DNA of 64,000 nucleotides. Source: an uncultured Acidobacteriota bacterium (lineage in GTDB: Bacteria > Acidobacteriota > DATKUA01). The notes beneath the pieces are model-generated. The model was not told the DNA's origin and made no database searches. It worked only from the letters and a program-made list of their open reading frames with translations. The position numbers were made by a program, and so were the translations under genes. The stretch covers positions 97,711 through 161,710 of the forward strand of contig CAYOXX010000002.1 of the NCBI GenBank assembly GCA_964408025.1. Reading direction: 5' to 3'. Below, piece after piece: positions 10,141-30,852 of the stretch (its first letter is position 1; the number at the start of each line of letters is the position of its first letter).

Positions 10141-10147
10141 TCTCGAG

Positions 10148-14006: not shown

Positions 14007-14352
14007 CCTACGGTAGAAATATCATCAGGTCAACAAGTTCATAACATTGCTAATTTATAAATAGTTTTTACACAAAAAGGCAAACCGATACAAAGATGAC
14101 GGACACCAGGGGGGAGACCAGGGAGTGTGACTGTAGCAGTTGAATCCTGGTTGACACTTCGGGTCCTTTGGCCAGCAGATTCTGGGGCAGGGCTTATTCT
14201 TTGCGGCCAGCCTTAAAATGTCGAGGAAGGCAAAACTAGGCTTTTCATCTACATTGCATAATGATACCAGATTAGTTATAATACTTGCATTCAACAATAG
14301 ACAGGTGCATAACCCCTGAGCAAGAAGAGGCGAGCATCTCTGGAGGTCAGCA

Positions 14353-16245
14353 ATGAGTTCAACCCATCGTTCGATGTTTACAGCCTTCATAGCGATCGCA
14401 GCGTTGACGATGATGTGTGTCTGCCAAGCGATGTCTCAAGAAAGGGAAGATCGCCCGACGGGCGATCCATTGGATTATCCGGTGCTCCTGGTTCACGGCC
14501 TCGGCGAAGGCCCCGGCGAAGAGGCCTTCGGCAGCCTCCAAGAGTTGCTCGAATCCTACTATTTCGACGTCGAAGTGATGGACTTCAACAGTTATGCCGG
14601 CAACTCCATCGCCAGACACCGCGACGCCGGCAACCTGGGAACCCTCGCAGCTATCCTCGGGATCAGAATAAGGAGCGTACTGAAGCAGTACAACACCGAC
14701 AGGCTCCACATCGTCGCCCACAGCTACGGCGGCCTCATCGTCCAGGCGTACCTGCTGGATTACGGCGAGGATTACTCCTCGAAAAAGGGCGGCTACGGCG
14801 ACAACGTAGACAAGGTGGTCTACATCCAGGTGCCGTTCTACGGCGTGGTCACCGACGATGAGGAGACGCTGCGGCAGATCGTTGAGGACACAGACTACGG
14901 CCCCTACACCGACTGGCAGGAAATCATGCGTACCCTTGAACTCGGCAGCCAGTGGATTTACGACATGGATGTCGCTCTACGTATAGAGAACCTATATCGA
15001 GACGAGATTGACGCCATCACCCTGGTCGCCGGCGACGACGAGTTCGTCCCGCCGTTGTTCGGAACCCTCAACGCCTTCATGGAGAAAGGTAGGACCCATA
15101 CTTTCCACCGCTTCCGCATCTTCGACGGCCAGCAATGGGGTAACTACACGCACTCTCAACATCCTCTCAGCAAGACCAGGCAACGCGACTCACTAGCCTA
15201 CGTACAGAGCACGACCGACCCTGTTTTCCTCTCTATTGTCAGCTTCCTCGAGGGCGGAAACATATGGCGCAAGATCGGAATGATCAACCTGCCGACCGAT
15301 GTCATCGTCATGGTCAAATACGACAAGGTCAAGGGGTATAAGAATATCGGCGAGGGAGACGTAACTCTGACCCTCAAGAAAAAAGCAAAAGGCGGTAACG
15401 GTTCCAGGTCCGACGCTGCCCGCGCAGCCGGGAGCGGCGACGTTTCCAACGGCTACTTCAACTCGCGCTCACGGATCTTCGTCTTCTCCGACCTAGCGCC
15501 GGGCAGGTACGACATAAACATCAACAATCCTAAGGGAGAGGACTTTGAGCAAGGGTTTGAATTCTATCCGACTGACTTGAAATCCTACGCATATAACCCC
15601 AAGAAGAACGAACTCCGGGAAGGCGATGTGCAGGTTTCCGACCTCGAAGGGCTCTACACGCTCGGCGGGCTGGTCTATCCGGGCAACATGCAATCCGCGC
15701 TGGTAGTGAATATCGCCGGCCGTGGCCTGAATACCAACGGCTTCGCCATCGAATTCGACATCGAGAACGCCGATCCCCAGTGGTACGACAAGGGAGTGGT
15801 GTTCTCGATGATGAACCAGAACGGCCCGCTACCTCCGGGTGGGCGCCCTCGGGATAACGGCGCACGGCTAGAGTTCGTCATTCGCGGTACTAACGTCAAA
15901 CCAGGCACCAGCACTAAGCACGCCAGCAAGATTACCTTTTACCTAGTGGTAGATAAAAATCGAGATAATGTAAAGCAGTATCCGGGCGAAGGCGTAGAAT
16001 ACAAAACCAGCGAGACCTGGAACTGGATGCTGAGACATCACGTGAGGCTCACGGTTGAAACCATCAACGGAGTCTGCTGGGTCAAGTGCTGGGTGGACGG
16101 TGAATTCGTTTTCGATCTGGACAAGAGCGCTCCCTACTACAATCCGAACCCGGTCATCTACTTCGGCGGCTCCGAGTTCAACGTCGACTACCACGCGCCC
16201 AAAGGCGCCCGGCTGTCAAACTTCAGAATCTACAACCTCCAATAG
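14353..16245 (+). CDS. Secreted class-2 lipase-like alpha/beta hydrolase (AHSYGG nucleophile elbow) with a C-terminal beta-sandwich domain of roughly 250 aa. Lower GC than the flanks
   Basis: Signal peptide. The AHSYGG motif resembles the AHSMGG of Bacillus LipA. Confidence 0.6.
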   Translation: MSSTHRSMFTAFIAIAALTMMCVCQAMSQEREDRPTGDPLDYPVLLVHGLGEGPGEEAFGSLQELLESYYFDVEVMDFNSYAGNSIARHRDAGNLGTLAAILGIRIRSVLKQYNTDRLHIVAHSYGGLIVQAYLLDYGEDYSSKKGGYGDNVDKVVYIQVPFYGVVTDDEETLRQIVEDTDYGPYTDWQEIMRTLELGSQWIYDMDVALRIENLYRDEIDAITLVAGDDEFVPPLFGTLNAFMEKGRTHTFHRFRIFDGQQWGNYTHSQHPLSKTRQRDSLAYVQSTTDPVFLSIVSFLEGGNIWRKIGMINLPTDVIVMVKYDKVKGYKNIGEGDVTLTLKKKAKGGNGSRSDAARAAGSGDVSNGYFNSRSRIFVFSDLAPGRYDININNPKGEDFEQGFEFYPTDLKSYAYNPKKNELREGDVQVSDLEGLYTLGGLVYPGNMQSALVVNIAGRGLNTNGFAIEFDIENADPQWYDKGVVFSMMNQNGPLPPGGRPRDNGARLEFVIRGTNVKPGTSTKHASKITFYLVVDKNRDNVKQYPGEGVEYKTSETWNWMLRHHVRLTVETINGVCWVKCWVDGEFVFDLDKSAPYYNPNPVIYFGGSEFNVDYHAPKGARLSNFRIYNLQ

Positions 16246-16265
16246 ACGTCAGAGGAGGCTGGCTC

Positions 16266-16297
16266 AGAACCGCCGTAGGGATCGGCGGTTCTTGTGT
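16266..16297 (+). terminator. Rho-independent terminator-like hairpin (gaaccgccg...cggcggttc followed by TTGTGT)
   Basis: Stem-loop read from the sequence, just after the lipase stop codon. Confidence 0.4.
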
Positions 16298-16521
16298 ACA
16301 TAGCCCAGTTCGAAGTGCAGAAAAGTGGATAAGCGAGGGTTCTGCAGCGTATAGAGCCCTTAGGCACTTACATCGCCCTCAAAGGATCAGGGCAGATAGG
16401 GAGAATACTCCACTAAATTCTTCGAGAGCAGAAAAAGGACATCTCTTCATCTCTGTGGTGGCCGATGTAATATAAAGTGTCTCGATTCAGGAATGGTACC
16501 CTGCCATCCCACCCCGTTCCG

Positions 16522-16590
16522 CTGCCCCGTGACAGGGGCAGCTTCGCTCCTAGATTGATAATGCCATAAGGGATCGCTTTATGGGCAGGT
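16522..16590 (+). repeat. Copy X of a dispersed intergenic element (ctgccccgtgacaggggcag cttcgctcctagattgataa...). A related TTTATGGGTGGGG motif sits at 16696-16714
   Basis: Aligns with the copies at 18965-19065 and 27718-27814. Confidence 0.5.
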
Positions 16591-16924
16591 TGCGAGAGGA
16601 GAATACCTCTTCTCTGTAGAGCATCTGAGTGGGGTGGGCAATTTCTTAAAAGATTCTTGTCCGCTTTCGATACTAGCAGAGTTTAGTTAGGTGTGTCGCA
16701 TTTATGGGTGGGGATTCAGTATCAGCAATCCTTCTGAGCCTGCCGGAAACCTAGGGATCATTGACATGGCAATTGAGCTAACAGCACAAGTTCTATCATC
16801 CTATACAGTGGCTAGCGTTAACTAAGCCATGCCAAAACTATGAAAGGAGGTCAAGGAACGGAGGCTTAAAGTAACTCTTATGGAATCTAAGATCCAATTG
16901 GTGTGCTGGAGAAAGGAGATGCAA

Positions 16925-18772
16925 ATGAAAAAGCTACTATTTGTCAGTTTCTCACTATCACTATTAGCCTGTTGTTTCGTAATCCCGATTTCAATAGCTC
17001 AGGAGGCGGAATGGGTTGATGTTAGCACACTAGGCCCTTCAGTTCGTGCAACACCCGCAATGGTCTATGACGAAGAAAATAATGTAGGAGTACTTTTTGG
17101 TGGGGGGGCTAACATAGGTGGGATTCATAATGATTATGGTGATACTTGGATATGGGATAGTAGTACTAGAACATGGACTGAGGTTACACCAACAGATCCA
17201 GAATCATCACCTTCCAAACGTAGAGTAGCTGGAATGGCTTACTATAGTAATGGAAAAGCGATTCTTTTTGGTGGAATTACCGGCACTGGTGGAACTACCG
17301 TCATTCACTATGATACTTGGATATGGGATAGTAGTACTAGAACATGGAATGATGTTACTCCAGAGGACGTTGATGATAGAGTAGCAAATGGCACATGGCC
17401 TGCTAAACGTGGTTTAACTAAATTAGCTTATGATAGTGCTAGAGATAGAGTAGTACTTTTTGGAGGATGGGATGGATATAACTATTTTGGTGATACATGG
17501 GAATGGGATGATGACAATAGAATATGGATAGATGTAACTCCTTCTGGCGATTCTCCATCTGGGAGATATAGCCATGATATGGCCTATGATGGTGTTAATG
17601 GAATTGTCCTCTTTGGTGGAAATGACCGGGTGGTACGTGGTGATACTTGGATATGGGATGGTACTAATTGGCAAGAAGTCACTCCTGAAATAGGACCATC
17701 ACCTTCTAGGCGTGAGTCGCCTGCAATGGCTTATGACAGCACGAGCAACAGAGTGATCCTCTTTGGGGGACTGCATTATGATCCAAAAGAGTTCAAAGAC
17801 GACACTTGGGAATGGGACGGTAATACGAGAACATGGACTGATATCAGCACACCAGGACCAGATGCCCGCCTATATCATGCGATGGCCTATGATAGCGAAA
17901 ATAGTGTGATGGTTCTTTTTGGAGGAGTATATGACCCATTGGTTTTTTTAGATGACACATGGGAATACGGCCCTGTTTGTATAGAAAACGAAATAACCGC
18001 CACGGATCCGGACGGCAACAGTAACTATTGTTCATCAATTCAAGAGGCTGTCGATTTAGTCGACGGTGAAGGCTGGGAGATTACCGTTGGATCTGGCGAG
18101 TATGATGAATACGTCCTGATCCGTGGGAAAGTAAACCTCGCTATCAGAACATCATGCGCTGCTGAAGTAAAAGGCTTTATGCTCCAAAAATGCAACAACA
18201 TCACAATTGACGGCTTCACAATTGATGCAGAGGGCTCAGGTGCTAACGGCGTCACGCTGATGGGCGGCAATAACGATAATAGCGACGTCACCATCACTAA
18301 CTGCGATATCCACGGAGCTGGCAACAGCTACAGCGGCATCAAAGCGGCGCGGGGCAATCCCAACACAACAATCATTGGTAACCACATCCATCACAATGGC
18401 CGCAACGGGATAGTATTTATCGATGCCGCAGGTGGGCCGCACTTCATTACAAACAACGTCATCGAAGCAAATGGTTGGAATGGATTGAAAGTCGCCCGGC
18501 AACACGAGATCACTCTGACCGGTAACACGATCACAGCCAATGGCACAAGATCAGGTACTACTGGAGGCCGCTATGGAGTTCTCCGCGAGCGAACTACCGG
18601 GACAGGCTGGCCGGAAGGGATCACGCTCATCAACAACGTAATAACTGATAACAACGGGACGGTCCAGACAGGAAAGAGCTCAATTGATCTCGGAAACTAC
18701 GACCAGATGCTGGATGAGACAGACAGCGGCAACACTACAACCTCTGGAGACGAAGGACCTGGCGTGAGCTAG
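16925..18772 (+). CDS. Secreted Kelch-repeat beta-propeller protein fused to a right-handed parallel beta-helix (pectate-lyase-like) domain. Very AT-rich
   Basis: Repeated motifs GDTWIWD and LFGG (Kelch) in the N-terminal half. NxxITxN/GNxI beta-helix repeats in the C-terminal half. Shine-Dalgarno AAAGGAG lies 6 nt before the ATG at 16925. Confidence 0.65.
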   Translation: MKKLLFVSFSLSLLACCFVIPISIAQEAEWVDVSTLGPSVRATPAMVYDEENNVGVLFGGGANIGGIHNDYGDTWIWDSSTRTWTEVTPTDPESSPSKRRVAGMAYYSNGKAILFGGITGTGGTTVIHYDTWIWDSSTRTWNDVTPEDVDDRVANGTWPAKRGLTKLAYDSARDRVVLFGGWDGYNYFGDTWEWDDDNRIWIDVTPSGDSPSGRYSHDMAYDGVNGIVLFGGNDRVVRGDTWIWDGTNWQEVTPEIGPSPSRRESPAMAYDSTSNRVILFGGLHYDPKEFKDDTWEWDGNTRTWTDISTPGPDARLYHAMAYDSENSVMVLFGGVYDPLVFLDDTWEYGPVCIENEITATDPDGNSNYCSSIQEAVDLVDGEGWEITVGSGEYDEYVLIRGKVNLAIRTSCAAEVKGFMLQKCNNITIDGFTIDAEGSGANGVTLMGGNNDNSDVTITNCDIHGAGNSYSGIKAARGNPNTTIIGNHIHHNGRNGIVFIDAAGGPHFITNNVIEANGWNGLKVARQHEITLTGNTITANGTRSGTTGGRYGVLRERTTGTGWPEGITLINNVITDNNGTVQTGKSSIDLGNYDQMLDETDSGNTTTSGDEGPGVS

Positions 18773-18799
18773 TACATCCCTTCAGTGCGAAAATATATT

Positions 18800-18831
18800 G
18801 AGGCCGCCTGAAAAACGGCGGCCTCGTTTTA
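18800..18831 (+). terminator. Rho-independent terminator (gaggccgcc, loop tgaaaaac, ggcggcctc, then GTTTT)
   Basis: Perfect 9-bp stem followed by a T-run, downstream of the stop at 18772. Confidence 0.6.
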
Positions 18832-19228: not shown

Positions 19229-20593
19229 ATGAATTTCCGCGACCTCTCTTTCGTTGATGCTCCCATGATCAAGACACAGCCCCCCGGGCCTGTATCCAGG
19301 GAATATCTTGATTCCCAGTCCACCCATGAAGGTTCGGCTGTCTCGTATCCGCGAGGGATGCCGATGGCGCTCCGCAGAGCGAAAGGTGCAACCGTTGAGG
19401 ATGTCGACGGAAATCTCTTCATCGATTTCTTTAGTGGTGCCGGGGTCATAAACGTGGGCCACTCGAATCCGGATGTGATAGAGGCGGCTCACCGACAGAT
19501 CGATGAAATCACCCACGCCCTTGACTTCCCCACCCCTGCCAGGAAATCGCTGGTGGAGAAGCTCCTATCACTTCTGCCGGCCCCTCTGAACAAAGTCTTT
19601 TTCGGAGGGCCGACCGGATCTGACGCCGTGGAAGCGGCGATGAAGCTGGCGAAATATTACACGCGGCGCATCCCGATGATCTCCTTCGAGGGCGCCTATC
19701 ACGGCATGACTGCCGGCGCGCTCTCTCTAACCAGTGGTGACTGCTTTAGGGAAGATTTTCTTCCAGGCCTTCCAGAGGTTCACTTCGTTCCCTACCCCTA
19801 CTGCTACCGCTGCGCATTCGGGATGGAACCTGAAACGTGCGACCTGCACTGCGCCAAACACATCGACCACATTCTGGAAGACCCTCATTCCGGCGTGGCG
19901 AGGCCGGCAGCGGTTATTTTCGAAGCGATTCAAGGGGAGGGTGGTTCCATTATCCCGCCGGATCAGTTCGCACGGGAACTCAGGGAGATATGCGATCGAC
20001 ACGATCTCCTTTTGATAGTAGACGAAATCCAGGCCGGATTCTGCCGCACGGGCAGGACCTTTGCCTTTGAACACTACGGGATCGTGCCCGATATCGTCAC
20101 CATGAGCAAAGCATTGGGAGGCGCCGGCTTTCCGATATCCTGCATTGCATACAGAGAGAAGCTGGACAAATGGCCGGCCGGCAAGCACATCGGCACCTTC
20201 CGCGGCAACGTTGTGGCCTACGCAGCCGGAAGCGCGGCTATCGATTTCATGATTAAGAACAGCCTGGCAGAGTACGCTGCCGAAATGGGCGAATCGATGC
20301 TCTCCTGGCTAAAGGAGATAGAAAAGGATTCCAGAATCGTAGGGGAAGCTCGCGGAAAAGGGCTTATGCTTGGCCTTGAACTGGTGAAGGACAAGGAAAC
20401 AAAAGAGCCGGCCCCCGAACTGGCAAAGAAGGTAAGAACTATCTGTCACCGCCGCGGCCTGCTGATCGAGGTCGGTGGACACTATTTCAACGTTGCGCGC
20501 TTCCTCCCGCCCCTAGTCATCACTGAAAACCTGGCAAAGAAGGGGGTCGAGATAATAGCGGATTCGCTTAGGGAGGCTGAGAAATCGTTTTAG
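19229..20593 (+). CDS. Class III PLP-dependent aminotransferase (GabT / beta-alanine-pyruvate transaminase-like). Start trimmed to MNFRDLS
   Basis: Full-length AT-III fold motifs (DEIQAGFCRTGR, TMSKALGG). Confidence 0.8.
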   Translation: MNFRDLSFVDAPMIKTQPPGPVSREYLDSQSTHEGSAVSYPRGMPMALRRAKGATVEDVDGNLFIDFFSGAGVINVGHSNPDVIEAAHRQIDEITHALDFPTPARKSLVEKLLSLLPAPLNKVFFGGPTGSDAVEAAMKLAKYYTRRIPMISFEGAYHGMTAGALSLTSGDCFREDFLPGLPEVHFVPYPYCYRCAFGMEPETCDLHCAKHIDHILEDPHSGVARPAAVIFEAIQGEGGSIIPPDQFARELREICDRHDLLLIVDEIQAGFCRTGRTFAFEHYGIVPDIVTMSKALGGAGFPISCIAYREKLDKWPAGKHIGTFRGNVVAYAAGSAAIDFMIKNSLAEYAAEMGESMLSWLKEIEKDSRIVGEARGKGLMLGLELVKDKETKEPAPELAKKVRTICHRRGLLIEVGGHYFNVARFLPPLVITENLAKKGVEIIADSLREAEKSF

Positions 20594-20619: not shown

Positions 20620-22017
20620 GTGATGTTGAAACCGAAGACAACCCTTATCAGGGGCGGAACAATAGTTATCGGGCAGACTGTTTCTCAACAAGATCTTCTA
20701 ATTCAAGGGGAAAGGATTTCAGCTTTAGGTGACATGTCTGACCGCATGGCCGATGTCGAGGTAGACGCCACCGGCCTGCTAGTGCTGCCGGGGGCCGTCG
20801 ACACCCACGTCCACTTCAACGACGAATTCATGAACACGGTCAGCGTGCACGACTACTACACCGGCACCCTGGCTGCCGCTTACGGAGGCGTCACCAGCAT
20901 AGTTGACTTCTCCAACCAGGCTCCCGGCGAGCCTCTTTTAAGTACTGTCAAGCAGAAGAACAAAGAGGCCGCAGGCAACGCCCTCGTCGATTGGGGTGTG
21001 CATCCGGTTATTACGGAGCCGACGCCCCAAACACTGGCAGAAATTCCCTCGGTGGTCGAAGCGGGGGCGCCAACCATAAAGTGCTACATGACCTATCGCG
21101 ACGAGGGCCTCATGATCGAAGACGAGGATCTGAAGCGCATTCTATTTGTGCTAAAAGAGGCCGGCGGAATGCTGATGCTGCACGCGGAGGATGACGACAC
21201 AATAGGAATAAACGTACACAGGATGATCAAGGAGGGCCTCACCAAACCAATCTATCACGCCAGAAGCAGACCGCCCGAGACAGAGGTCAAGGCAATCCGC
21301 CGTTGCCTCAAGATGGTAAGAGAAACAGGAGGCAGACTGTTCATCGTCCACATGGCTACCGACGAAGGTGTTGACATTGTACGTGAGGCCCGGCTCGAAG
21401 GCCTTGATCTCTTTGCTGAGACGTGTACTCACTATCTAGTCTTCACCGATAAAATGTTGGAGCGCGATGACGGAATCAAGTGGATCTGCTCTCCTCCCCT
21501 TCGAAGCCAAGCAATACAAGATCGGCTCTGGGAAAGCATAAAGAACAGCAACATTTCGATGGTGACCTCCGACGACGCCGCCTACTCCTGGGAGGCCAAA
21601 CTTCATGGCGCCGACCGCTTTGACAAATGCCCAAACGGCATCCCGGGCATCGAACCCCGTCTAAGCATTCTCTACTCCGAAGGAGTGGCCGGAGGACGGA
21701 TCTCCTTGCCGCGGTTTATTGAGTTGATTTCTACAGCGCCGGCTACACTATTTGGCCTGACGCCGCAAAAAGGCAGCCTCAATCCCGGAGCCGATGCCGA
21801 TATCGTACTCTTCGATCCCGACGCGCAATGGGTCATGAGCCGGGAAACGCTGCACATGGCCAGTGACTGGTCCGCCTATGACGACATCGAAGTCACGGGT
21901 AAAATTAAGAAGGTGTTTTCTCGGGGGGAGCTGATTATCGACGAAGACCGCTGCCTGGCGGAAAGGGGGAGGGGCCGTTATCTGCACCGCAAACTCGACC
22001 TGTCTGCGGGCGCGTAA
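20620..22017 (+). CDS. Hydantoinase / dihydropyrimidinase (cyclic amidohydrolase)
   Basis: Metal-binding DTHVH motif and full-length similarity to D-hydantoinase/DHPase. Confidence 0.8.
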   Translation: MMLKPKTTLIRGGTIVIGQTVSQQDLLIQGERISALGDMSDRMADVEVDATGLLVLPGAVDTHVHFNDEFMNTVSVHDYYTGTLAAAYGGVTSIVDFSNQAPGEPLLSTVKQKNKEAAGNALVDWGVHPVITEPTPQTLAEIPSVVEAGAPTIKCYMTYRDEGLMIEDEDLKRILFVLKEAGGMLMLHAEDDDTIGINVHRMIKEGLTKPIYHARSRPPETEVKAIRRCLKMVRETGGRLFIVHMATDEGVDIVREARLEGLDLFAETCTHYLVFTDKMLERDDGIKWICSPPLRSQAIQDRLWESIKNSNISMVTSDDAAYSWEAKLHGADRFDKCPNGIPGIEPRLSILYSEGVAGGRISLPRFIELISTAPATLFGLTPQKGSLNPGADADIVLFDPDAQWVMSRETLHMASDWSAYDDIEVTGKIKKVFSRGELIIDEDRCLAERGRGRYLHRKLDLSAGA

Positions 22018-23517: not shown

Positions 23518-24927
23518 TTGCTGGAAAGTGTCCTGGACGGCGCTTCATACGTAAGCGGGGCCCTCTGGGGGCCCTGGACGCTGATTTTTATCGCTGCCGT
23601 TTCCGTTTTCCTGACGGCAAGATCCGGCTTCTTCCAGATAAGAAAACCCGGACTAATCTTGAGAGAAACTCTAGGGAAAATCTTTGAGCGGGGGGAATCC
23701 GCTAACAAGGGAAGAATGTCACCGTTCCAGGCGACGTCAACAGCTCTGGCCAGCACCGTTGGAATGGGAAACATCGCCGGGGTCGCCACAGCCATCTCCA
23801 TCGGAGGGCCGGGATCCATATTCTGGATGTGGCTCCTGGCTCTACTCGGGATGATGTCAAAAACCGCGGAGATTACACTCGCCGTCCACTACAGGGATGT
23901 CGACAAGGAAGGGCGTTTCCGTGGCGGACCCATGTATTACATCAAGAAAGGTTTGGGCTGGAAGCCACTGGCCATCGTATTCAGCTCCGGAGTACTCATA
24001 AATTCGTTGTTGAGTGCTTCCCTGCTCCAACCGCACACAGTCGGCAGGGCTCTCCTGTCCAGCTATAATTTCGATCCCTACATAGTCACCGGCCTGATGG
24101 CTGTCATCACTGCGATCGTAGTTTTCGGTGGAGTCAAAAGAATCGGCCAATTCTGCGAGAAGCTCGTGCCCCTCATGTCCCTTCTGTATATTTTGGGCGC
24201 GGTAACGATATTTGTCGTAAATTACGCAAAAATGCCAGAGGTGTTCGGTTCAATATTCATGTACGCTTTTGCGCCGGCCCCGGCTGCCGGCGGGGTGGCG
24301 GGAGTGGCGGTTGCTACGGCCATCCGAGAAGGTATGGCAAAGGGGATGCTGTCCAACGAAGCCGGCTGCGGAACCGCCCCGATGGTTCACGCGACAGCAG
24401 ATACGAAGCACCCCTTTCAGCAGGGCATGTGGGGAACATTTGAAGTCTTTGTAGATACGATCGTTATCTGCACCATAACTTCCTTCGTCGTCCTCTCGAC
24501 CGGAGTATTATCCAGCGGGGAATCCGGTATAGAGTTGGTTATACTTGCTTTCTCATCTGTGTTCCCTGAGGAAGTTGCGGGCACGATGCTCTCCTCCTGC
24601 ATCCTGACTTTCTGCCTGACGACCCAAATAGGTTTTTTTATTTACTATGAAACGGCATTGGTTAATGTATTCGGTAAAAAAGCTGTGAGATATCTGAAAT
24701 GGCTTTACCTGATTCCCGGAATACTATTTGCGGGATTTGCCGACGTCGACAGGCTATGGGTTTTCGCAAACATCGCTGTAGGCGTCTGCGCCATTCCGAA
24801 CCTAGTTGCTGTTCTGGCCCTGAGCGGGGTATTCTTTAAGTTAATGAAGGACTATTTGAACGACACGAACAAATACGCGACAAGGATTGTCGATTCTTCG
24901 AAGGAATATGTGCAAATAGCACAGTAA
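23518..24927 (+). CDS. Alanine/glycine:cation symporter (AGCS family)
   Basis: Polytopic membrane protein with AGCS signature regions. Confidence 0.8.
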   Translation: MLESVLDGASYVSGALWGPWTLIFIAAVSVFLTARSGFFQIRKPGLILRETLGKIFERGESANKGRMSPFQATSTALASTVGMGNIAGVATAISIGGPGSIFWMWLLALLGMMSKTAEITLAVHYRDVDKEGRFRGGPMYYIKKGLGWKPLAIVFSSGVLINSLLSASLLQPHTVGRALLSSYNFDPYIVTGLMAVITAIVVFGGVKRIGQFCEKLVPLMSLLYILGAVTIFVVNYAKMPEVFGSIFMYAFAPAPAAGGVAGVAVATAIREGMAKGMLSNEAGCGTAPMVHATADTKHPFQQGMWGTFEVFVDTIVICTITSFVVLSTGVLSSGESGIELVILAFSSVFPEEVAGTMLSSCILTFCLTTQIGFFIYYETALVNVFGKKAVRYLKWLYLIPGILFAGFADVDRLWVFANIAVGVCAIPNLVAVLALSGVFFKLMKDYLNDTNKYATRIVDSSKEYVQIAQ

Positions 24928-24970: not shown

Positions 24971-25438
24971 ATGGATAACAATAGAATGAGCAAAAAAATC
25001 GACAGGATCTCATTTCAACTCGGCATGATCAATTGCTTTGCAGAGATGGTGGCCTGTGGCGTGAAGAAACTTGCTATAAGTCCGCCGATCTCTCCCGAGG
25101 ATTATGAAGTAATTGGAAAGCTATCCAATAACATAGTAAAAGGGTTCGGCATACAGTCCTATTTGGAAAGATCCCTGCTGATAACTGATCTTCAGCCTGA
25201 AGAATTCACTGCAGATAAGTGGTCCATCCTCTACTACGAAAGTGAGGAGATCCTTGAGGAATATCTGGTCTTAAAGGAGAAAAAGCGGCAGCTTGAACGG
25301 TCGGGCCGGTACAATAGGGAGGCCGGAAGAGAGATGGCCAGGGCTTTCATGAGGCTTTTAAGCTATCCCGAGGACAAAACAGAAGAAAAGCTCTCCAAGG
25401 AGACCCCGTCATCCCCCTACATGCTTACTGACGATTAG
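24971..25438 (+). CDS. Hypothetical cytoplasmic protein
   Basis: 155-aa ORF with no recognised domain. It sits within the operon. Confidence 0.4.
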   Translation: MDNNRMSKKIDRISFQLGMINCFAEMVACGVKKLAISPPISPEDYEVIGKLSNNIVKGFGIQSYLERSLLITDLQPEEFTADKWSILYYESEEILEEYLVLKEKKRQLERSGRYNREAGREMARAFMRLLSYPEDKTEEKLSKETPSSPYMLTDD

Positions 25439-25442
25439 GAGT

Positions 25443-26144
25443 TTGGTTATGAGGATATTGATCATCAATCCCAACAGCGACGAAGAGATGACTAAGGCAA
25501 TTCAAAAAGCCGCCGACAATTTCGCCGGCGGGGATTTCGAAGCCGTATGCAAACCTACACCGGGAGCGCCCGCATTCATTGAAACCTACGAGGATCAAAT
25601 CAAGGCCGCGCCCGAAATGATTCGGCTAGTGAGGGAAAACGAAAAGAAGTTTAATGCCTTCGTGGTCGCCTGCCACTGCGACCCTAATCTCGATGCAATC
25701 AAGGAGATCACCAAGAGGCCTGTGGTCGGTATTGGCGAGGCATCGATGAAGATTGCCTCCATGCTGGGGCACCGCTTTTCAGTTGTTTCAAGCAGCAAGC
25801 ATTCCATTCCCAATAAAGAGGCCCTGGCAAGCAAATACGATCTTCAGGACATGCTTGCTTCGGTCAGAGCTCCCGCGGATGAAATGTCTGAATGCGACGA
25901 AGAAGAAAAGATCATGCGGGCCGCGCAATCGGCCATCGAGGAGGATATGGCGGAAGTGATTGTGCTGGGCTGCGCCGGGATGGCGGGACTGGATAAGCAA
26001 CTTCAGAAGAAACTCGGCGTTCCTGTTCTGGATGGAGTCGCTTGCGCCCTGATAATCGCGTCCGGCCTGGTTAAATATGGAGTCTCAACCAGCAATATCC
26101 GTAGGTACAACACTGAATACAAAATCCCTCCTGTGGGCGGTTGA
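25443..26144 (+). CDS. Asp/Glu/hydantoin racemase superfamily protein (hydantoin racemase-like)
   Basis: Two catalytic-position Cys residues (ACHC at about residue 77, GCAG at about 178), matching HyuE-type racemases. Confidence 0.7.
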   Translation: MVMRILIINPNSDEEMTKAIQKAADNFAGGDFEAVCKPTPGAPAFIETYEDQIKAAPEMIRLVRENEKKFNAFVVACHCDPNLDAIKEITKRPVVGIGEASMKIASMLGHRFSVVSSSKHSIPNKEALASKYDLQDMLASVRAPADEMSECDEEEKIMRAAQSAIEEDMAEVIVLGCAGMAGLDKQLQKKLGVPVLDGVACALIIASGLVKYGVSTSNIRRYNTEYKIPPVGG

Positions 26145-26207
26145 AACTATCGGTTTTTTCTCGAAGTGCGGGATCGTGAGCGCAACATTCATGGGAGATA
26201 GCTCGCT

Positions 26208-27401
26208 ATGAGAGAAAAGATAACTTCTATCGCAACGTCAATTCACGACGATCTCATAAACTTACTCCGCGACATGATCGCCATCCCCTCCTACAGCGGT
26301 AAGGAAGGAGCCGTTATCGAGCGAATGAAGCAAGAGATGCAGAACCTCGGTTACGACCAGGTTTGGGTCGACCCACTGGGGAATCTCTTGGGACGGATCG
26401 GTTCGGGAAACAAAGTGATCGCTATTGACGGCCACTGCGATACCGTCGGTGTCGGCAATCCGGAAACCTGGAAAGTCGATCCCTTTAAGGGCGATTATCG
26501 CGATGGAGTCATCTACGGACGGGGTGCATGCGACCAGAAAAGCGGCCTGGCATCGGCAATTTACGCCGGCAAAATCCTGAAAGAGGTCGGCATGCCCGAT
26601 TGCATTTCGGTTTTCGTCGTTGCCACGGTGCTCGAAGAGGACTTCGAAGGCCTCTGCTGGCAATACATCATTAATGAAGGCAGGATCGTGCCCGAGGCGG
26701 TCCTGATCACCGAGCCGACAGGCCTGGAGATCAAGATCGGTCAGCGCGGACGGATGGAAATTGAGGTGAAGACTGAGGGAATATCCTGCCACGGCTCCGC
26801 TCCCGAGCGCGGGAAAAATGCGATCTACTTAATCGCTCCAGTAATCCAGGAAATCGAGCGCCTTAACGAACGCCTGGAAAGCAAATCCGTGCTGGGAAAG
26901 GGTACCGTTACGGTAACCGATATCCGCTCCACCGCGCCTTCTCTTTGTGCCGTTCCCGACAGTGCCACCATTCACCTGGACAGGCGTCTGTCCGCCGGAG
27001 AGAAGCTGGAGACCGCCGTCAAGGAAGTGCAAGACCTTATTTCAGTTAAGACAGCCAAAGCAAAAATTTCGGTGCCTGAATATGAAATCAAGAGCTACAC
27101 CGGTCTCGCTTACCCAGCCAGAGCTTACTACCCTATGTGGTTGATGGACGAATCGGACCCCCTAATTCACACGGCAGCAGAGGCGCATAAAAAAATGTTC
27201 GGCGAAGAAGCAGACATTGGTGTTTGGGGGTTCTCTACTAACGGCGTGGTGACGAAGGGCGTTTATGATATCCCGACCATCGGATTCGGTCCGGGGAAAG
27301 AGGAACATGCCCACACGCCCGATGACCAGGTCCGCACGGACGATCTGTTAGCAGCTATGAACTTCTACGCTGCGTTCGTCCTGGAATGGGGAGAAGGATA
27401 G
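26208..27401 (+). CDS. M20 family amidohydrolase (N-carbamoyl-amino acid / beta-ureidopropionase / YgeY-like)
   Basis: M20 metal ligand motifs (IDGHCDTV, ACDQKSG). Confidence 0.75.
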   Translation: MREKITSIATSIHDDLINLLRDMIAIPSYSGKEGAVIERMKQEMQNLGYDQVWVDPLGNLLGRIGSGNKVIAIDGHCDTVGVGNPETWKVDPFKGDYRDGVIYGRGACDQKSGLASAIYAGKILKEVGMPDCISVFVVATVLEEDFEGLCWQYIINEGRIVPEAVLITEPTGLEIKIGQRGRMEIEVKTEGISCHGSAPERGKNAIYLIAPVIQEIERLNERLESKSVLGKGTVTVTDIRSTAPSLCAVPDSATIHLDRRLSAGEKLETAVKEVQDLISVKTAKAKISVPEYEIKSYTGLAYPARAYYPMWLMDESDPLIHTAAEAHKKMFGEEADIGVWGFSTNGVVTKGVYDIPTIGFGPGKEEHAHTPDDQVRTDDLLAAMNFYAAFVLEWGEG

Positions 27402-27717
27402 TACCATTTAAGGAAGAGCGGTTGAAAAAGTGTCCCACGAGCAGCCGCCAGAGCAAAACGCTGGCATCTCGTCCGGCGACGCCGTCTACCGTGCGATTCT
27501 ATCTTTCCAGAGACATCGGATTGAAAAAGAAAGACCGCCTAATAGTCAGCGCCCAGCTGCGGGCCGTGAAGCACCGTAAGAAGAGGACTATCAGGCTAAT
27601 GACAGCATTGCCCGAAGACGTTCACCCAGCCGCTTCGGACCCTAAAATGTAGCTACCATCTACACTCCACAGAGATTGCTTGTGTTTACCGGCTTGCCCT
27701 GGAGCTTCAAGGCTCCA

Positions 27718-27814
27718 CTGCCCCGGGACAAGAGCAACTTCGCTCTAAGATCAATAGCTGTAAAAGCGCCTTTAAAAGCGGAAAGAGTTAAAGGGGTGAG
27801 ATTTGCGGTGGGGG
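27718..27814 (+). repeat. Copy Y of the roughly 100-bp intergenic element
   Basis: Aligned with copies Z and X. Contains the exact 22-mer ggggtgagatttgcggtgggg. Confidence 0.55.
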
Positions 27815-28121
27815 CAAAGCCATTTAATGAGGTCTGGAGCAGGTGAGTATCCAGATGCTTCCTACTTCCAAATCGGCCAACCTTAAGAGGTGGTTGAGCC
27901 TCACGGCGGGAGTGAGTTCATCAACACGCGGCTAGCGTCAGATGCAGGGAGACAAAAGCCCCGTGTAGGAGCGGGAAACCTGTAAAATCCGCCTGCAGAG
28001 CGGAAAAAACCGGAAGGGGCAATCGGTTGAAACGAGGAGCTAAAACGATCCTGGAGAGCTCGAAATGCCCACTCAAATGATCAATAAATTAATGGCCTCT
28101 GATAAGCCGAATCAGAAGAGC

Positions 28122-28301
28122 CTATACTTCGCCTCTCTTCAGCATGCTCGCACAGCAGCACGATTTGTAGAAGAGGCTCATGATGGCCAAAATTATGGCG
28201 GCCACGATAACAACCCATTGAACCCAGGTTGCAGGCCACCAGAATATGGCCAACACGGCGATAACAGCAGCCAAAATAAACCGGCAGAAGCATATACTCA
28301 T
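28122..28301 (-). CDS. Small hydrophobic membrane protein (59 aa, two predicted TM helices, Cys-rich C-terminus)
   Basis: Strong Shine-Dalgarno AGGGAGGAGG lies 8 nt before the ATG. The antisense plus-strand ORF 28065..28322 is probably its shadow. Confidence 0.4.
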   Translation of the reverse strand: MSICFCRFILAAVIAVLAIFWWPATWVQWVVIVAAIILAIMSLFYKSCCCASMLKRGEV

Positions 28302-28635
28302 GGCACCAACCTCCTCCCTTAGAGTGTTTGCATAATAACATAAGAACACCAAAGGTCAAATTAAATAAACTTTATCTCCGAGCCTGATCCCGACCCCAGA
28401 AAACGAGTCCAGTTTTAATGCTAGTAAATTGTCGTCTACGACACTTGTTCTCCTCGATTTTCATTGGTATCTCAGGAACCTTAGAATATGCAATGCCGCG
28501 GTTCTGGAGTGGTAACCATTCCTCCCCCGCTCCGCTGCCTTGTGACATGAGCATCTCCGCTCCAAGAGCTGAAAGCTGCATTAACAAGAGACTATTGCCC
28601 TATCTGATCACAGAGGAAAGCTGAGCCTGACCTCG

Positions 28636-29043
28636 CTACTGCACCGTGAAGAACCTCTTGCTGTTCGCTTTGCGGCCATCGGGATTCGTGATTTCTACCC
28701 TGTACTGCCCCGAGGCGCCCACAGGGGCGTTCACTACGACCTCCAGGTATTTCTCGTTGAAGTAGAATTTCCTGATCGACACCGTGCCCGCAGTGGAGGG
28801 GGAGGTGCCGACGCTGACCAGCCGCGCTACGCAGCCGGGGAGAGCAAACCTGTGAGACACACTGACGGTGGTTTCGCCGCCGGCGCTTACTATCATTGGC
28901 ATGATCTGCTTCGGCTTGGGAGTTTTCGGCCTCGCCGTTCCGAAAAGGTATAGCTTGGTGCTGATCTGATCTGCCGGAAACGGGCTGTTTCCATTGAAAA
29001 TCGCTGTGAACCGCATCCTGCCGTCGCCGACAATCCCCTGCAT
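28636..29043 (-). CDS. Hypothetical beta-sandwich-like protein
   Basis: ORF on the same strand immediately downstream of 29216..29737. Its frame stays open upstream to 29220 but has no alternative start there. Confidence 0.4.
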   Translation of the reverse strand: MQGIVGDGRMRFTAIFNGNSPFPADQISTKLYLFGTARPKTPKPKQIMPMIVSAGGETTVSVSHRFALPGCVARLVSVGTSPSTAGTVSIRKFYFNEKYLEVVVNAPVGASGQYRVEITNPDGRKANSKRFFTVQ

Positions 29044-29215
29044 ATCAGGTTCTTCTTCACCCTCACCCTCGACGCTGAAAGCGCCCGTAGCCGGGTTGTA
29101 TACTCCCGTCAGAAGGCTGGTACCTGCCTCTAAGGTTTGCGGATTAATATAAACGACGTTGACTGTGATGCGGATGCCATCGACCAGAACAGCGACAAGC
29201 AGGTTTTCGGTAACA

Positions 29216-29737
29216 TCAGGTTAAGCCCCCCCCCTGCTCGACAGACCCGAGGTACATCCCGCTGACATAACTGCCGTCTGCGTTGCAGCGGGTCAACTTG
29301 AAAATCATCTTGCCGGAATCCGTATTGAACGGTATTTTCAGCAGCTTTCCTCCCTTCGCAAACCGCGGAAGCCGTTTAATCGGCTCGTTCTGCTCCTCTT
29401 CGCTCTGAATGATCAGCTTGTTGCCGGCCCAGCTGCCGTCGTAGAGGGGCCAAGTCCTGAAGCCCAAGACCGACTGCGGCGGCGCAAACTGGTCCTCGAC
29501 ATACCCGGGCACAACCGCGCATCCGTAGACGACGCCGCCCTGCTCGACGAAATGCATATAGATCGGGAGATTGAAATCACCCTCCGGATCAGGTTCGAGC
29601 TCCACCACATCAACGGAATAGAAGCCGAGATACTGTGTGCCATCGAGTGTAACGGCTGGTGCCTTATCTTCGTTCGCATAGGCTGAGATTGGCGAAGCGA
29701 ACATCAATAACGCTAAGCTTAACAGCAATTTACGCAT
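29216..29737 (-). CDS. Secreted hypothetical protein (signal peptide MRKLLLSLALLMFASPISAYA)
   Basis: ORF track. A poly-G tract of about 8-9 nt (the C-run at about 29226-29234) lies 5 codons before the stop. Confidence 0.5.
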   Translation of the reverse strand: MRKLLLSLALLMFASPISAYANEDKAPAVTLDGTQYLGFYSVDVVELEPDPEGDFNLPIYMHFVEQGGVVYGCAVVPGYVEDQFAPPQSVLGFRTWPLYDGSWAGNKLIIQSEEEQNEPIKRLPRFAKGGKLLKIPFNTDSGKMIFKLTRCNADGSYVSGMYLGSVEQGGGLT

Positions 29738-30023
29738 GATTATCCCTCGTTCGGATGCTCAGTTATTACAACCTGTTTCTTAGTTTACCCTGAGCTCGGT
29801 TAATAATTAATTCCTTCGCAGACATTATCATGAGATGAAAAGTACAGCAAATGGTCACGTAATGCGACGCAGCTATCGCTTTGCGGTGGGGCCAGAACGG
29901 AGCGTTCTTAGTGATTAAATAGTCCTAATGCAACAAAGTTCAAGTGACACCAAGAGGTCGGCAGACTCCGCAGGTTGTTAGAATAGCGATTAATTTTCGT
30001 TGTTGCTGTGCCGGCCGACTCCG

Positions 30024-30317
30024 TTACGGCATCTTGGCAATGATTCTATACATCTCCTCTGGCGAAACGGCCTGCAGAGTTTCGGTCCTGACATTGCCCA
30101 GGGAGCCGGTGCTCAGGGCAAGGGCCGAATAGGTCTCCAGATCCGGCGCATCCCCGATGACCACCATGTCGTGGCACCCAACGGTGTAGTATAAAGCCTT
30201 GATTGTAACTCCCATTCCCTCTGCCACCTTCTTAAAGGCTTTGGCTCGCTGGACTGTGTCCCTAATGTTCGTAATGCCTTGTGAGGTGAAATCTACCAAG
30301 CTTATGTAGGTTGGCAT
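30024..30317 (-). CDS. GYD domain protein
   Basis: 97 aa with the GYD-family signature (SLGNVRT). AGGAGG Shine-Dalgarno 7 nt upstream. Confidence 0.7.
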   Translation of the reverse strand: MPTYISLVDFTSQGITNIRDTVQRAKAFKKVAEGMGVTIKALYYTVGCHDMVVIGDAPDLETYSALALSTGSLGNVRTETLQAVSPEEMYRIIAKMP

Positions 30318-30852
30318 GACCGCCCTCCTAAGTTATAGGTTTGTGTTGCGACCATCATGAGAGATCGCATGATCTATATAGCTGTTGGGAAACTGACCAG
30401 AGGATACCTTTTTGGATACCGTTTATCAATGGCGGCGAAATGCGGTAAAGAGAGACCGAGAGAGGTGTCGCTTTCTGGCAAGCCGTTTCTGTCCCGAGTT
30501 GAAGCAGCTCGAAGATTCCTTGTGTTCAGCATGTCGATGTGCTCGATGATCATCGGGATTTAGAGAACGATTAAGTCTTTAAATGTTTCGATTTAGGAGT
30601 GTCAACTTTCGTCTTGGCTTGTTAACTCCCTCCTTCAGCGCGGCCCTGGCCAACGGGAACACTACTCCACGCCCCAGATACAATGGAAACAAACCTCGAC
30701 AAACCCGTCGCGCGACCAGTTATTGAGCGGGCAGATACAGTAACGACCTCCGGGTAGCCATTCCAAAACCAGCCCCGCGAGATGCGGTATTGTGCCAACG
30801 CGGAGTCTCGTGGATCATGCATGGAATTCGGAGTTCAATGTAATTCCTCAGT

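Follow-up and report, generated by a model that had tools for sequence, protein, structure and literature searches.

The segment at positions 14007-30850 of a 64,000-nt stretch of DNA from an uncultured, high-GC Acidobacteriota bacterium (the whole stretch is referred to here as the window) probably represents a chromosomally fixed accessory 'plasticity zone', composed of modules of different origin and age, and not one mobile island. Genomic islands are recognised by their atypical composition, also when they are anchored and without mobility genes, and acquired DNA ameliorates in the sense of Lawrence and Ochman. The region resembles such composition-defined islands in its low GC, GC3 and oligonucleotide signature, in its accessory metabolic and surface functions, in an edge that is sharp and coincides with a gene boundary, and in a GC3 that is host-shifted with GC1 and GC2 donor-like. 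It differs from classical islands in the lack of an integrase, tRNA or direct repeat at its outer borders, in its diffuse right border, and in comprising at least four compositional modules and no single unit. The initial annotation had described a single, horizontally acquired AT-rich island; the AT-rich region and its accessory gene content were as described, but the region is compositionally heterogeneous, with at least three compositional classes, and forms a patchwork of modules. Horizontal acquisition is supported for the core of an operon and for a Kelch gene, but neither for the lipase module, which has a host-like signature, nor for a single 16.8-kb unit.

Composition and edges of the region

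The GC content of 14007-30850 was 0.520, compared with 0.646 for 1-14006 and 0.650 for 47859-63000, and the AT-richness claimed relative to the core flanks thus holds (0.52 vs 0.65). It also holds for the stretches singled out as AT-rich, namely 14007-14350 (GC 0.44), 16250-16880 (0.49), 27400-28650 (0.50) and the Kelch gene (0.46). GC3 averaged 0.633 ± 0.082 (range 0.41-0.76) in the region genes (n = 13) and 0.842 ± 0.048 (range 0.76-0.94) in the core genes (n = 23; Mann-Whitney p = 1.1e-6). GC1 was also reduced (0.536 vs 0.655), and the core-codon-usage log-likelihood per codon fell from +0.33 in the core to -0.12 in the region. The correlation of tetranucleotide z-scores with the core, a GC-independent measure, was judged against size-matched core controls. 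It was 0.27 for the Kelch module (controls 0.62 ± 0.08, minimum 0.44), 0.60 for the operon (0.80 ± 0.01) and 0.46 for the small-gene block (0.67 ± 0.06), while the lipase module, at 0.58, lay inside the core range. GC, GC3 and tetranucleotide usage all deviated, and composition was not uniform.

Native DNA without any transfer, with low GC reflecting weak codon bias, low expression or secreted-protein composition, would agree with the range of values that the host tolerates, since GC3 is 0.75 in the flanking GWxTD gene and 0.70-0.72 in several genes at 31-41 kb. It would also agree with the host-like tetranucleotide signature of the lipase and with a region that is fixed in the population and without mobility genes. 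Such bias does not account for the shift, because GC1 is low (0.54 vs 0.66), the cytoplasmic enzymes of the operon have a GC3 of only 0.57-0.65 (host 0.84), and native secreted and outer-membrane proteins within the window keep a high GC3 of 0.75-0.84 (TonB-dependent receptor 0.84, YkuD 0.81, beta-lactamases 0.78-0.82). The Kelch, operon and small-gene signatures outside their size-matched core ranges, the GC1 and GC2 of the operon cassette, which equal those of low-GC orthologs, and a Kelch propeller demonstrably swapped between strains also argue against this explanation, which we consider unlikely. For individual genes it may nevertheless be correct: as the native GWxTD gene has a GC3 of only 0.75, the region genes at 0.70-0.76 (the lipase and the 135-aa and 173-aa ORFs) may be native.

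The first of these, module A (14353..16245, + strand; GC 0.556, GC3 0.74), encodes a secreted alpha/beta-hydrolase (lipase-like; Pfam Abhydrolase_1/6) with an uncharacterised C-terminal half. The family is rare: among 1.84 billion cluster representatives only 44 belong to it, the closest of them at 45-46% identity. The module is indistinguishable from native genes by oligonucleotide signature. The small genes lie on the - strand. Module D (28122..28352) encodes a small predicted membrane protein of 76 aa (59 aa in the calls of other assemblies), and module E (28636..30317; GC3 0.66-0.76) comprises three small genes, for a 135-aa unknown protein, a 173-aa unknown protein with a signal peptide and a 97-aa GYD-domain protein.

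The left edge of the region is sharp, with GC values of 0.70, 0.62 and 0.46 in successive 200-nt bins across the stop codon, at 14006, of a GH32-like gene of host-type composition (12561..14006, + strand; GC 0.66, GC3 0.83). The right edge is gradual; position 30850, previously taken as the end of the island, is not a compositional boundary, and milder atypicality runs on to about 47.6 kb (GC 0.58, GC3 0.74, sliding r 0.51-0.69). Both edges are AT-rich spacers (left, 14007..14352, GC 0.44; right, 30318..30852, GC 0.50) without a repeat copy, and the left one also lacked tRNA fragments and mobility ORFs. The outer edges are marked by neither an integrase or transposase gene nor a tRNA or terminal direct repeat, and the reported absence of integrase and transposase genes was confirmed with the minor spacer ORFs included.

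Distribution in the population and in outgroup lineages

Both junctions and the whole interior were colinear at 99.8-100% nucleotide identity in at least five independent assemblies, among them JGI contigs (318,713 and 490,727 bp) and further assemblies, of ENA and Logan, built from other samples. If DNA of a lower-GC organism had been joined to a high-GC contig during assembly or binning, the abrupt GC change exactly at a gene end would be explained, and one ENA contig (L001/L009) is itself a chimera further to the left, where it diverges completely inside aspS at window position 6833. Since the junctions and interior were reproduced by different assemblers, samples and centres, such a chimera is effectively refuted.

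All sampled genomes with the GH-like/GlyK context belong to one population (at least 99% identity) and every one carries the whole region, so no empty site was seen. In the next relatives, conserved proteins are only 57-71% identical. Two outgroup lineages (L016/L017/L096, Acidobacteriota bacterium SMAG_U14095, and L097) have EF-P, GWxTD, TPR, unk246 and GlyK genes in this order within 6 kb, with no region gene within 10 kb. This absence does not prove an insertion, because at a distance of about 60-70% at the amino acid level most of the flanking synteny has been lost as well. Nor do the GH-like and GWxTD genes neighbour each other in these relatives: GWxTD adjoins EF-P, within about 2 kb of GlyK, while the GH-like homolog (57-62% aa identity) lies elsewhere in another gene context. 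The GWxTD/TPR gene at the right flank (30853..33087, - strand) is native, judging from its ortholog (43-45% aa identity) beside EF-P and near GlyK in both outgroup lineages.

This placement bears on the possibility of one tRNA-targeted island of about 14.0-46.9 kb, integrated at tRNA-Ser(GGA), from which the integrase has since been lost. The tRNA-Ser gene (46818-46907, - strand) has its 3' end toward the low-GC side, the 19-mer at its 3' terminus is repeated exactly at 46584 and in degenerate form at 46476 and 45734, and the mild atypicality extends to about 47.6 kb, with core values beyond. However, a copy of the tRNA 3' end is present near neither 14.0 kb nor 30.85 kb, and GWxTD, ancestrally linked to EF-P/GlyK in the two outgroups, lies in mid-span. 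A TonB-dependent receptor, a class-A beta-lactamase and a DUF819 gene within the span have core-like GC3 (0.80-0.84), and an integrase is found nowhere in the window; an island of this kind is therefore quite improbable.

The hydantoin-type operon and the Kelch gene

Module C (19.2-27.4 kb) consists of seven genes on the + strand. Gene 1 (19229..20593) encodes a class-III aminotransferase of the diaminobutyrate-2-oxoglutarate transaminase family (Pfam; TIGR00709, 414.8 bits, cut-off 401.6), 68% identical to an Aminicenantes homolog. Gene 2 (20620..22017) encodes a dihydropyrimidinase/D-hydantoinase (TIGR02033, 457 bits, cut-off 393), and gene 3 (22058..23443) a group-II PLP-dependent decarboxylase (Pfam Pyridoxal_deC) that scored under every NCBIfam equivalog cut-off. 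They are followed by genes for an Na+:alanine/amino-acid carrier (AGCS; 23518..24927), assigned by family match, and for a conserved 155-aa protein (24971..25438) with no match in Pfam, NCBIfam or PHROGs, which travels with the cassette and has an ortholog, 69% identical, at the same position in relatives L098/L099. The last two genes encode a member of the Asp/Glu/hydantoin racemase family (25443..26144; family match) and a YgeY-family M20 hydrolase (26208..27401; NF009555, 528.8 bits, cut-off 321).

The five-gene core, from hydantoinase through decarboxylase, AGCS carrier and 155-aa protein to racemase, occurs in identical order in L098/L099 and L100, and an Aminicenantes genome (L101) has the hydantoinase and racemase genes with an aminotransferase gene nearby. 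The nearest cassette relatives are 67-78% identical at the amino acid level and lie on contigs of GC 0.42-0.47, where the GC3 of the cassette (0.36-0.57) matches that of its own flanks. GC1 and GC2 of the window cassette equal those of these low-GC orthologs and its GC3 is higher (0.57-0.65). With GC1 and GC2 of low-GC type and GC3 part-way to the host, the core was probably acquired and partly ameliorated, and its foreign origin is well supported. The nearest known relatives of host EF-P and GlyK share only 71% and 57-62% identity with them, respectively. The distance of the cassette from low-GC lineages is therefore no greater than that of housekeeping genes from the closest kin of the host. 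The hydantoinase has hundreds of homologs at 70-77% identity, which alone is weak evidence of transfer because the family is highly conserved. Two 'Aminicenantes' hydantoinases share 71% identity; they are 70% identical to one from Anaerolineales and 71-73% to that of the window, and similarity among these three taxon-labelled homologs does not appear to track the named taxa. As to direction and timing, we infer that the core is a cassette circulating among phyla that was gained from a lower-GC donor, after which GC3 would have moved toward the host and GC1 and GC2 would not.

The operon resembles hyu clusters and the E. coli ygeW-ygfL region (hyuA, ygeY) in combining a D-hydantoinase/dihydropyrimidinase, a racemase, a YgeY M20 hydrolase and a transporter. 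Here, an AGCS Na+:amino-acid carrier takes the place of an NCS1 hydantoin permease as the transporter, and compared with both systems there are an additional group-II PLP decarboxylase, a diaminobutyrate-transaminase-family enzyme and the unknown 155-aa protein. The E. coli region also has carbamoyltransferase, carbamate kinase and selenium-dependent partners, none of which is present here. The operon appears to be catabolic, with a cyclic ureide of hydantoin or dihydropyrimidine type as its probable substrate. The AGCS carrier would mediate uptake or export, the hydantoinase would open the ring, racemisation would follow, the YgeY-type M20 enzyme would decarbamoylate or deacylate the product, and decarboxylation and transamination would be the last steps.

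Module B (16880..18772, + strand; start at 16925 in other assemblies, with gene calls of 615 aa) encodes a predicted lipoprotein in which an N-terminal Kelch beta-propeller is followed by a right-handed beta-helix at the C-terminus (Pfam). Its lipobox, LLAC, was read directly off the sequence, and an intrinsic-terminator-like hairpin (18799..18826, + strand) follows the gene. With GC 0.46 and GC3 0.41 it is the strongest compositional outlier; it looks horizontally acquired, and its foreign origin is well supported. In strain variant L108, the propeller-coding segment 17026..17949 (+ strand, GC 0.43) is replaced by an unrelated segment of ~912 nt with only ~50% nucleotide identity. The breakpoints are sharp, the flanks are 98.7-99.2% identical, and both alleles keep the signal peptide and the beta-helix. 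Two alleles were seen in total, one of which comes from a 3.3-kb contig with 3x coverage. Relative L109 carries a homologous beta-helix (70% aa identity) behind an FG-GAP propeller. A divergent N-terminal propeller on a constant signal peptide and beta-helix, and another propeller type on the homologous beta-helix of L109, are features of polymorphic surface proteins with exchangeable domains, although the window, unlike those systems, contains neither silent donor copies nor diversity-generating machinery, and the alleles seen are two. The Kelch gene, the most foreign-looking DNA of the region, is still exchanging: its propeller half is swapped, probably via recombination in the conserved flanks.

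Repeats at the module joints

The 'private repeat family' reported for the spacers is real but small, with four copies of about 115 nt, all at module joints and on the + strand. Copy 1 (16505-16619) lies at the lipase/Kelch joint; it was detected with a profile derived from the repeat copies themselves (nhmmer, E = 3.6e-26) and independently by blastn (E = 2.5e-6). Copy 2 (18947-19061) lies at the Kelch/operon joint, copy 3 (27701-27814) at the joint of the operon and the small genes, and copy 4 at 28517-28631. The 3' ends of copies 2 and 3 are the same exact 23-mer, AGGGGTGAGATTTGCGGTGGGGG (19039-19061 and 27792-27814), which occurs twice, bracketing the operon, with 0 matches expected (100 shuffles). 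In the 79 nt upstream of the 23-mer, these copies are identical at 45 of 79 positions (57%), compared with 19.8 ± 4.0 matches, and a maximum of 36, in random pairs.

Four repeats of similar size in one orientation, each after a module, an operon between two copies with an exact 3' core, as if crossover occurred at one site end, and accessory, mostly uncharacterised content could suggest an integron-like cassette array (CALIN-type) with the repeats as attC-like sites and every module a cassette taken up by an integrase encoded elsewhere. Yet the repeats have no conserved fold: the consensus reached -4.0 and -8.6 kcal/mol on the two strands, with no favourable covariation and a hairpin on neither, and single-copy folds were inconsistent with one another. 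Direct reading of the sequences revealed no canonical R''/R' boxes, and the repeats lack end-to-end dyad symmetry, since only the 5' ~55 nt are common to all four. One 'cassette' would span 8.7 kb and seven genes, modules D and E lie on the opposite strand, and there is no IntI in the window, which makes such an array very improbable.

Direct repeats in the same orientation between modules, with an exact short core common to the pair flanking one module, are also reminiscent of tandem island accretion at a reused att site, as well as of integron arrays. Unlike in either system, there is no recombinase, and none can be linked to the repeats; a conserved hairpin, attC-type boxes and outer-edge copies are lacking as well, and module sizes and gene orientations differ from those of integron cassettes. 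In the simplest reading, the repeats would be what remains of insertion or accretion by recombination at a repeated site. A fixed plasticity zone of modules differing in origin and age, which is the explanation favoured here, would be an ordinary kind of bacterial genome plasticity.

Composition and limits of the low-GC region

A single, horizontally acquired island had been proposed in the initial annotation for 14007-30850, between a GH32-like gene and a GWxTD gene. The fall in GC content over this region proved to be real and significant (GC 0.52 against 0.65, with GC3 and tetranucleotide usage also deviating). By segment, GC was 0.646 at 1-14006, 0.520 at 14007-30850, 0.580 at 30853-47640 and 0.650 at 47859-63000, and the four AT-rich stretches that had been named (14007-14350, 16250-16880, 27400-28650 and the Kelch/beta-helix gene) gave 0.44, 0.49, 0.50 and 0.46 on calculation. 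The 23 core genes of the high-GC flanks had a GC3 of 0.842 ± 0.048, a GC1 of 0.655 and a log-likelihood per codon under core usage of +0.33, against 0.633 ± 0.082, 0.536 and -0.12 for the 13 island genes (Mann-Whitney p = 1.1e-6 for GC3). A bias due to low expression or secretion is not the explanation, since GC1 is also depressed in the island, the low-GC3 operon genes encode cytoplasmic enzymes, and the native secreted and outer-membrane proteins of the window hold a GC3 of 0.75-0.84.

The left edge is abrupt, with GC passing through 0.70, 0.62 and 0.46 in 200-nt bins across the GH32-like stop codon at 14006. At the right edge the change is gradual and milder atypicality continues to about 47.6 kb, so that the right boundary claimed for a single island was not borne out. 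Nor does the region form one coherent island, as its modules differ in both GC3 and tetranucleotide signature. GC3 was 0.74 for the lipase-like gene (14353-16245), 0.41 for the Kelch/beta-helix gene (16880-18772), 0.57-0.65 for the seven genes of the operon (19229-27401) and 0.61-0.76 for the small genes (28122-30317). Tetranucleotide usage was also set against the core in the form of z-score vectors, a measure that does not depend on GC, using core segments matched in size as controls. Correlation with the core was 0.27 for the Kelch module (size-matched core 0.62 ± 0.08, minimum 0.44), 0.60 for the operon (0.80 ± 0.01) and 0.46 for the small-gene block (0.67 ± 0.06); the value for the lipase module, 0.58, lay inside the size-matched core range. 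Atypical composition of the kind used to recognise genomic islands was thus found for the region with the exception of the lipase module. Just 44 of 1.84 billion cluster representatives fall in the very small family of the lipase-like protein, the closest at 45-46% identity, and a PDB sequence search gave generic alpha/beta-hydrolase matches with no informative solved relative. Family searches with the small ORFs returned no match except GYD.

The segment at 30853-47640 is a second, milder anomaly (GC 0.58; GC3 0.70-0.84, mean 0.74; tetranucleotide r 0.45-0.65, sliding r 0.51-0.69). Genes of core-like GC3 within it encode a TonB-dependent receptor (0.84), a class-A beta-lactamase (0.82) and a DUF819 protein (0.80), and its atypical genes encode a sigma-54 activator with a GAF domain, an aminotransferase, a C39-like peptidase and a 169-aa unknown. 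A sigma-54 enhancer-binding protein gene is located at 38990-40804; of the sigma-54-type -24/-12 matches across the window, the two best, both on the - strand with 10/12 consensus positions, are at 12287-12302, upstream of the glycerate kinase gene GlyK, and at 45462-45477, upstream of the class-A beta-lactamase gene.

The absence of an integrase or transposase, also claimed initially, was upheld: searches of all genes and ten minor spacer ORFs against Pfam, NCBIfam and PHROGs identified no integrase, transposase, recombinase or phage family, the sole PHROGs match being a marginal esterase hit to the lipase-like protein (E = 2e-4). The region therefore differs from a classical genomic island, which carries an integrase or mobility gene and is inserted at a tRNA or tmRNA gene with direct repeats at both ends; here, flanking direct repeats enclose the operon sub-module only and not the whole region. 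The sole tRNA in the window, tRNA-Ser(GGA) at 46818-46907 on the - strand, lies 16 kb past the right edge, and was ruled out as the att site of the region because no copy of its 3' end was found outside 45734-46836. Its 3'-terminal 19-mer has an exact copy at 46584-46602 and two degenerate ones, at 46476-46494 and at 45734-45752. There are longer repeats as well: 45586-45753 matches 46730-46837, and 45654-45715 matches 46502-46563 (74%). Between these repeats lies a segment of GC ~0.50 with a small secreted Asp-rich ORF (45885-46298, GC3 0.51). The repeats at 45586-46907 look like att-type scars of earlier integration or excision at the tRNA, and would represent a separate islet.

Presence in the population and synteny with relatives

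The locus was recovered in many assemblies by exact-protein look-up of the flanking EF-P and the island GYD protein. Both junctions and the whole interior were 99.8-100% identical at the nucleotide level in JGI, Logan (two runs) and ENA contigs, and the pieces fetched from the JGI contigs Ga0309839_1000008 (318,713 bp) and Ga0111034_1025699 (490,727 bp) were apart by exactly the expected 841 nt. The low-GC region is no assembly artefact. The assemblies all stem from a single near-clonal population, and every one has the region; no empty site was seen among genomes at 99% identity or above.

Some contigs departed from this pattern. ENA contig L001/L009 (ERZ27251135 k141_2491683) is identical to the right of window position 6833 and unrelated to the left, with the break inside aspS; it probably arose when sequences of different species were joined at this conserved gene during assembly. 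In the SPAdes assembly ERZ25073496, NODE_1401 and NODE_219 end at 18052 (inside the Kelch gene) and 29804 (in the spacer before GYD), leaving the interior of the region unjoined to its flanks in that sample; strain heterogeneity or a change in coverage could be responsible. Window positions 1-302 align to sister contigs in either of two registers, offset by about 150 nt, at 94.9% and 74.6% identity. Mismatches to contigs L006-L008 are mostly in 22-133, which suggests that the left end of the window has a short repeat, tandem or variable.

Fine-scale synteny could not be followed through the GH32-like gene. The initial scan of a genome collection was empty, no homolog of 62%-100% identity was found among 5.8 billion clusters, and homologs at 57-62% are in an unrelated context, with GT4-GT2-ATP-grasp beside Fer4-carbamate kinase-OTCase-RidA. 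For GlyK, which lies two genes to the left of the edge, the closest relatives are at 57-62%, including one in Acidobacteriota bacterium isolate SMAG_U14095. Two distant outgroup lineages, one represented by L016, L017 and L096 and the other by L097, keep EF-P, GWxTD, a TPR protein, a 246-aa unknown and GlyK within ~6 kb (contig L016, 10004-16043; contig L097, 7068-13106), with identities to the window of 71% for EF-P, 43-45% for GWxTD, 47-51% for the 246-aa unknown and 57-62% for GlyK. This conserved block indicates that GWxTD is native and ancestrally linked to EF-P and GlyK. Within 10 kb of the outgroup blocks there is neither an island gene nor a GH32-like gene. In the window lineage, GWxTD (30853-33087) is inverted and on the far side of GlyK, 18.6 kb away; the GH32-like gene and low-GC DNA separate the two. 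In the rest of the block, at 8620-12263, an FGE-sulfatase-like gene occupies the place of GWxTD-TPR in the outgroups. Judged from gene order, the relocation of GWxTD is compatible with an insertion plus rearrangement. The comparison with related genomes that had been recommended thus found the region absent from outgroups at 57-71% amino acid identity and present in all genomes at 99% or above; as the outgroups have also lost the aspS/ParA linkage and other synteny, they are too distant to prove or date an insertion.

The operon and the Kelch/beta-helix gene

The operon encodes a class-III aminotransferase of the diaminobutyrate-transaminase family (TIGR00709, 414.8 bits against a cut-off of 401.6), a dihydropyrimidinase/D-hydantoinase (TIGR02033 equivalog, 457 against 393), a group-II PLP decarboxylase recognised by Pfam Pyridoxal_deC alone and falling under every NCBIfam equivalog cut-off, an AGCS carrier of the Na+:alanine symporter family, a 155-aa protein (24971-25438) without family assignment, an Asp/Glu/hydantoin-racemase family protein (Pfam Asp_Glu_race, 157 bits against 31; no NCBIfam equivalog match) and an M20 hydrolase of the YgeY family (528.8 bits against 321) that scores as no named carbamoylase. 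Like hyu operons it includes a hydantoinase/dihydropyrimidinase; the place of the hydantoin racemase may be taken by the Asp/Glu/hydantoin-racemase family protein, and that of the N-carbamoyl-amino-acid amidohydrolase by the YgeY-family hydrolase. Unlike hyu operons, it has an AGCS-family transporter instead of an NCS1-type hydantoin permease. Literature searches turned up no account of the cassette or of the lineage.

Homologs of the hydantoinase at 70-77% identity number in the hundreds. Loci L098 and L099 (contig GC 0.42-0.43) carry the five-gene core in the same order, hydantoinase-decarboxylase-AGCS carrier-155-aa protein-racemase, at 76/67/75/69/74% amino acid identity. L100 (GC 0.44) has hydantoinase-decarboxylase-AGCS carrier-racemase at 75/67/75/78%, and L101, a 4.35-Mb genome of GC 0.47 whose hydantoinase is labelled Candidatus Aminicenantes by NCBI, has hydantoinase-racemase plus an aminotransferase at 71/62/68%. 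The ortholog of the 155-aa protein, at 69%, lies between carrier and racemase in both L098 (13740-14207) and L099 (10096-10563), which are unrelated genomes of low GC, and this protein is likely to be a functional pathway component. Identities among hydantoinases are star-like and do not track the few taxon labels (Aminicenantes, Anaerolineales): two from Aminicenantes share 71% identity with one another, 70% with the one from Anaerolineales and 71-73% with that of the window.

In the low-GC genomes, GC3 of the cassette is 0.36-0.57, in line with neighbouring genes. The window cassette has essentially the GC1 and GC2 of those orthologs and a higher GC3 of 0.57-0.65, the signature expected of partial amelioration in a host of GC3 0.84. 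Its five contiguous genes are as similar to those of low-GC lineages as EF-P is to that of the host's nearest kin. Similarity and composition together point to horizontal acquisition of the operon core, which is the best reading of the sequence comparisons. A plasmid or phage vehicle was dropped, because the best hydantoinase match in a plasmid search was at most 40% identical and viral contigs contained no relatives of the hydantoinase or the Kelch protein.

In the Kelch/beta-helix protein, a signal of lipoprotein type, with the lipobox LLAC, precedes a Kelch propeller and a right-handed beta-helix; gene callers in other assemblies begin the gene at 16925, as against the 630-aa ORF. A PDB sequence search gave eukaryotic Kelch matches only. 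Its best full-length "homolog", protein match P0156, comes from the corresponding locus of a sister strain; this sequence, L108, is a 3.3-kb ENA contig with ~3x coverage and is the sole basis of the second allele. L108 is 98.7-99.3% identical to the window in the upstream spacer, signal peptide, beta-helix half, downstream spacer and aminotransferase, and between them 17026-17949 is replaced by ~912 nt (381-1292 of L108) that share just ~50% nucleotide identity with it and encode another Kelch propeller. In a further locus, L109 (GC 0.46), an FG-GAP propeller precedes a beta-helix 70% identical to that of the window. The swap makes the most AT-rich part of the region an exchangeable domain cassette and implies that recombination is still active at this locus. 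On these alignments, domain-cassette exchange is at work in a predicted surface lipoprotein, with two unrelated propeller alleles within the population.

The repeat at the module joints and its significance

The private repeat family reported in the spacers was confirmed as four copies of ~115 nt, all on the + strand, at 16505-16619, 18947-19061, 27701-27814 and 28517-28631. They occupy the joints lipase | Kelch | operon | small membrane protein | remaining small genes, the second being within the downstream spacer shared with L108. The 23-mer AGGGGTGAGATTTGCGGTGGGGG is present in exact form at 19039 and 27792 (0 matches expected from 100 shuffles) and brackets the operon, 168 nt upstream and 391 nt downstream. 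Similarity reaches ~80 nt upstream of the 23-mer (45/79 identical; random pairs 19.8 ± 4.0, maximum 36), and blastn of copies 2 and 3 gave 69% identity over 97 nt (E = 5e-12). The 5' ~55 nt is common to all four copies, including 1 and 4. A four-copy profile search found no fifth copy in the window, none at the outer edges of the region and none in any unrelated locus.

A structured RNA was ruled out, since the repeats had no Rfam match at gathering thresholds and no consensus fold on either strand (RNAalifold -4.0 and -8.6 kcal/mol, no favourable covariation). The attC sites of integrons and CALINs are imperfect palindromes with a conserved hairpin and R''/R' boxes. That reading was likewise rejected: no hairpin is conserved on either strand, and only the 5' ~55 nt is conserved throughout. 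IntI, expected beside an integron array, was not found within the 64-kb window. The 23-mer was also considered as a sigma-54 promoter, for which its GG-N10-TTGC spacing fits. This reading was rejected: the 23-mer has just 7/12 consensus positions, the cassette in L098-L101 lacks such a site upstream, and no convincing gene on the + strand follows the second copy.

The simplest interpretation is that the repeats are recombination scars or reused insertion sites. They may instead be a host REP/MITE-like element filling long AT-rich spacers. Elements of that kind have numerous copies across a genome and terminal inverted repeats, with target-site duplications in the case of MITEs; within the 64 kb plus flanks of the host genome, all four copies lie inside the region, and a 7-nt end pairing, CTGCCCC/GGGGCAG, is confined to copies 2 and 3. 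A bolder proposal, which we regard as improbable, joins the repeats, as sites of an accretion system served by an integrase in trans, with a Kelch lipoprotein diversified by wholesale propeller swapping. Such an undescribed system would reuse ~115-nt repeats as recombination sites, with crossover at the exact 23-nt core, and would stack whole modules, up to the 8.7-kb operon, head-to-tail at one chromosomal locus, forming a cassette-capture platform distinct from integrons.

Leaving that proposal aside, the region is integrase-less, population-fixed, compositionally mosaic accessory DNA. Of the island originally proposed, foreign, lower-GC origin probably holds for the operon core and the Kelch gene at least, and its unity and right boundary do not. 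The region is another instance of a well-known kind, and only the repeat-at-every-joint layout and the propeller swap merit follow-up. Current understanding is not overturned, the repeat pattern being the sole element that might lead to something new. The comparison also flags a conserved, uncharacterised five-gene cassette, including the family-less 155-aa protein, that occurs commonly among low-GC bacteria of sediments and the subsurface. If correct, the findings would document the entry of genetic material from other lineages into an uncultured, deep-branching lineage of Acidobacteriota, namely a widely shared, predicted cyclic-ureide catabolic cassette and an exchangeable surface-protein domain, and would show that integrase-less, compositionally mosaic regions can become fixed in populations.
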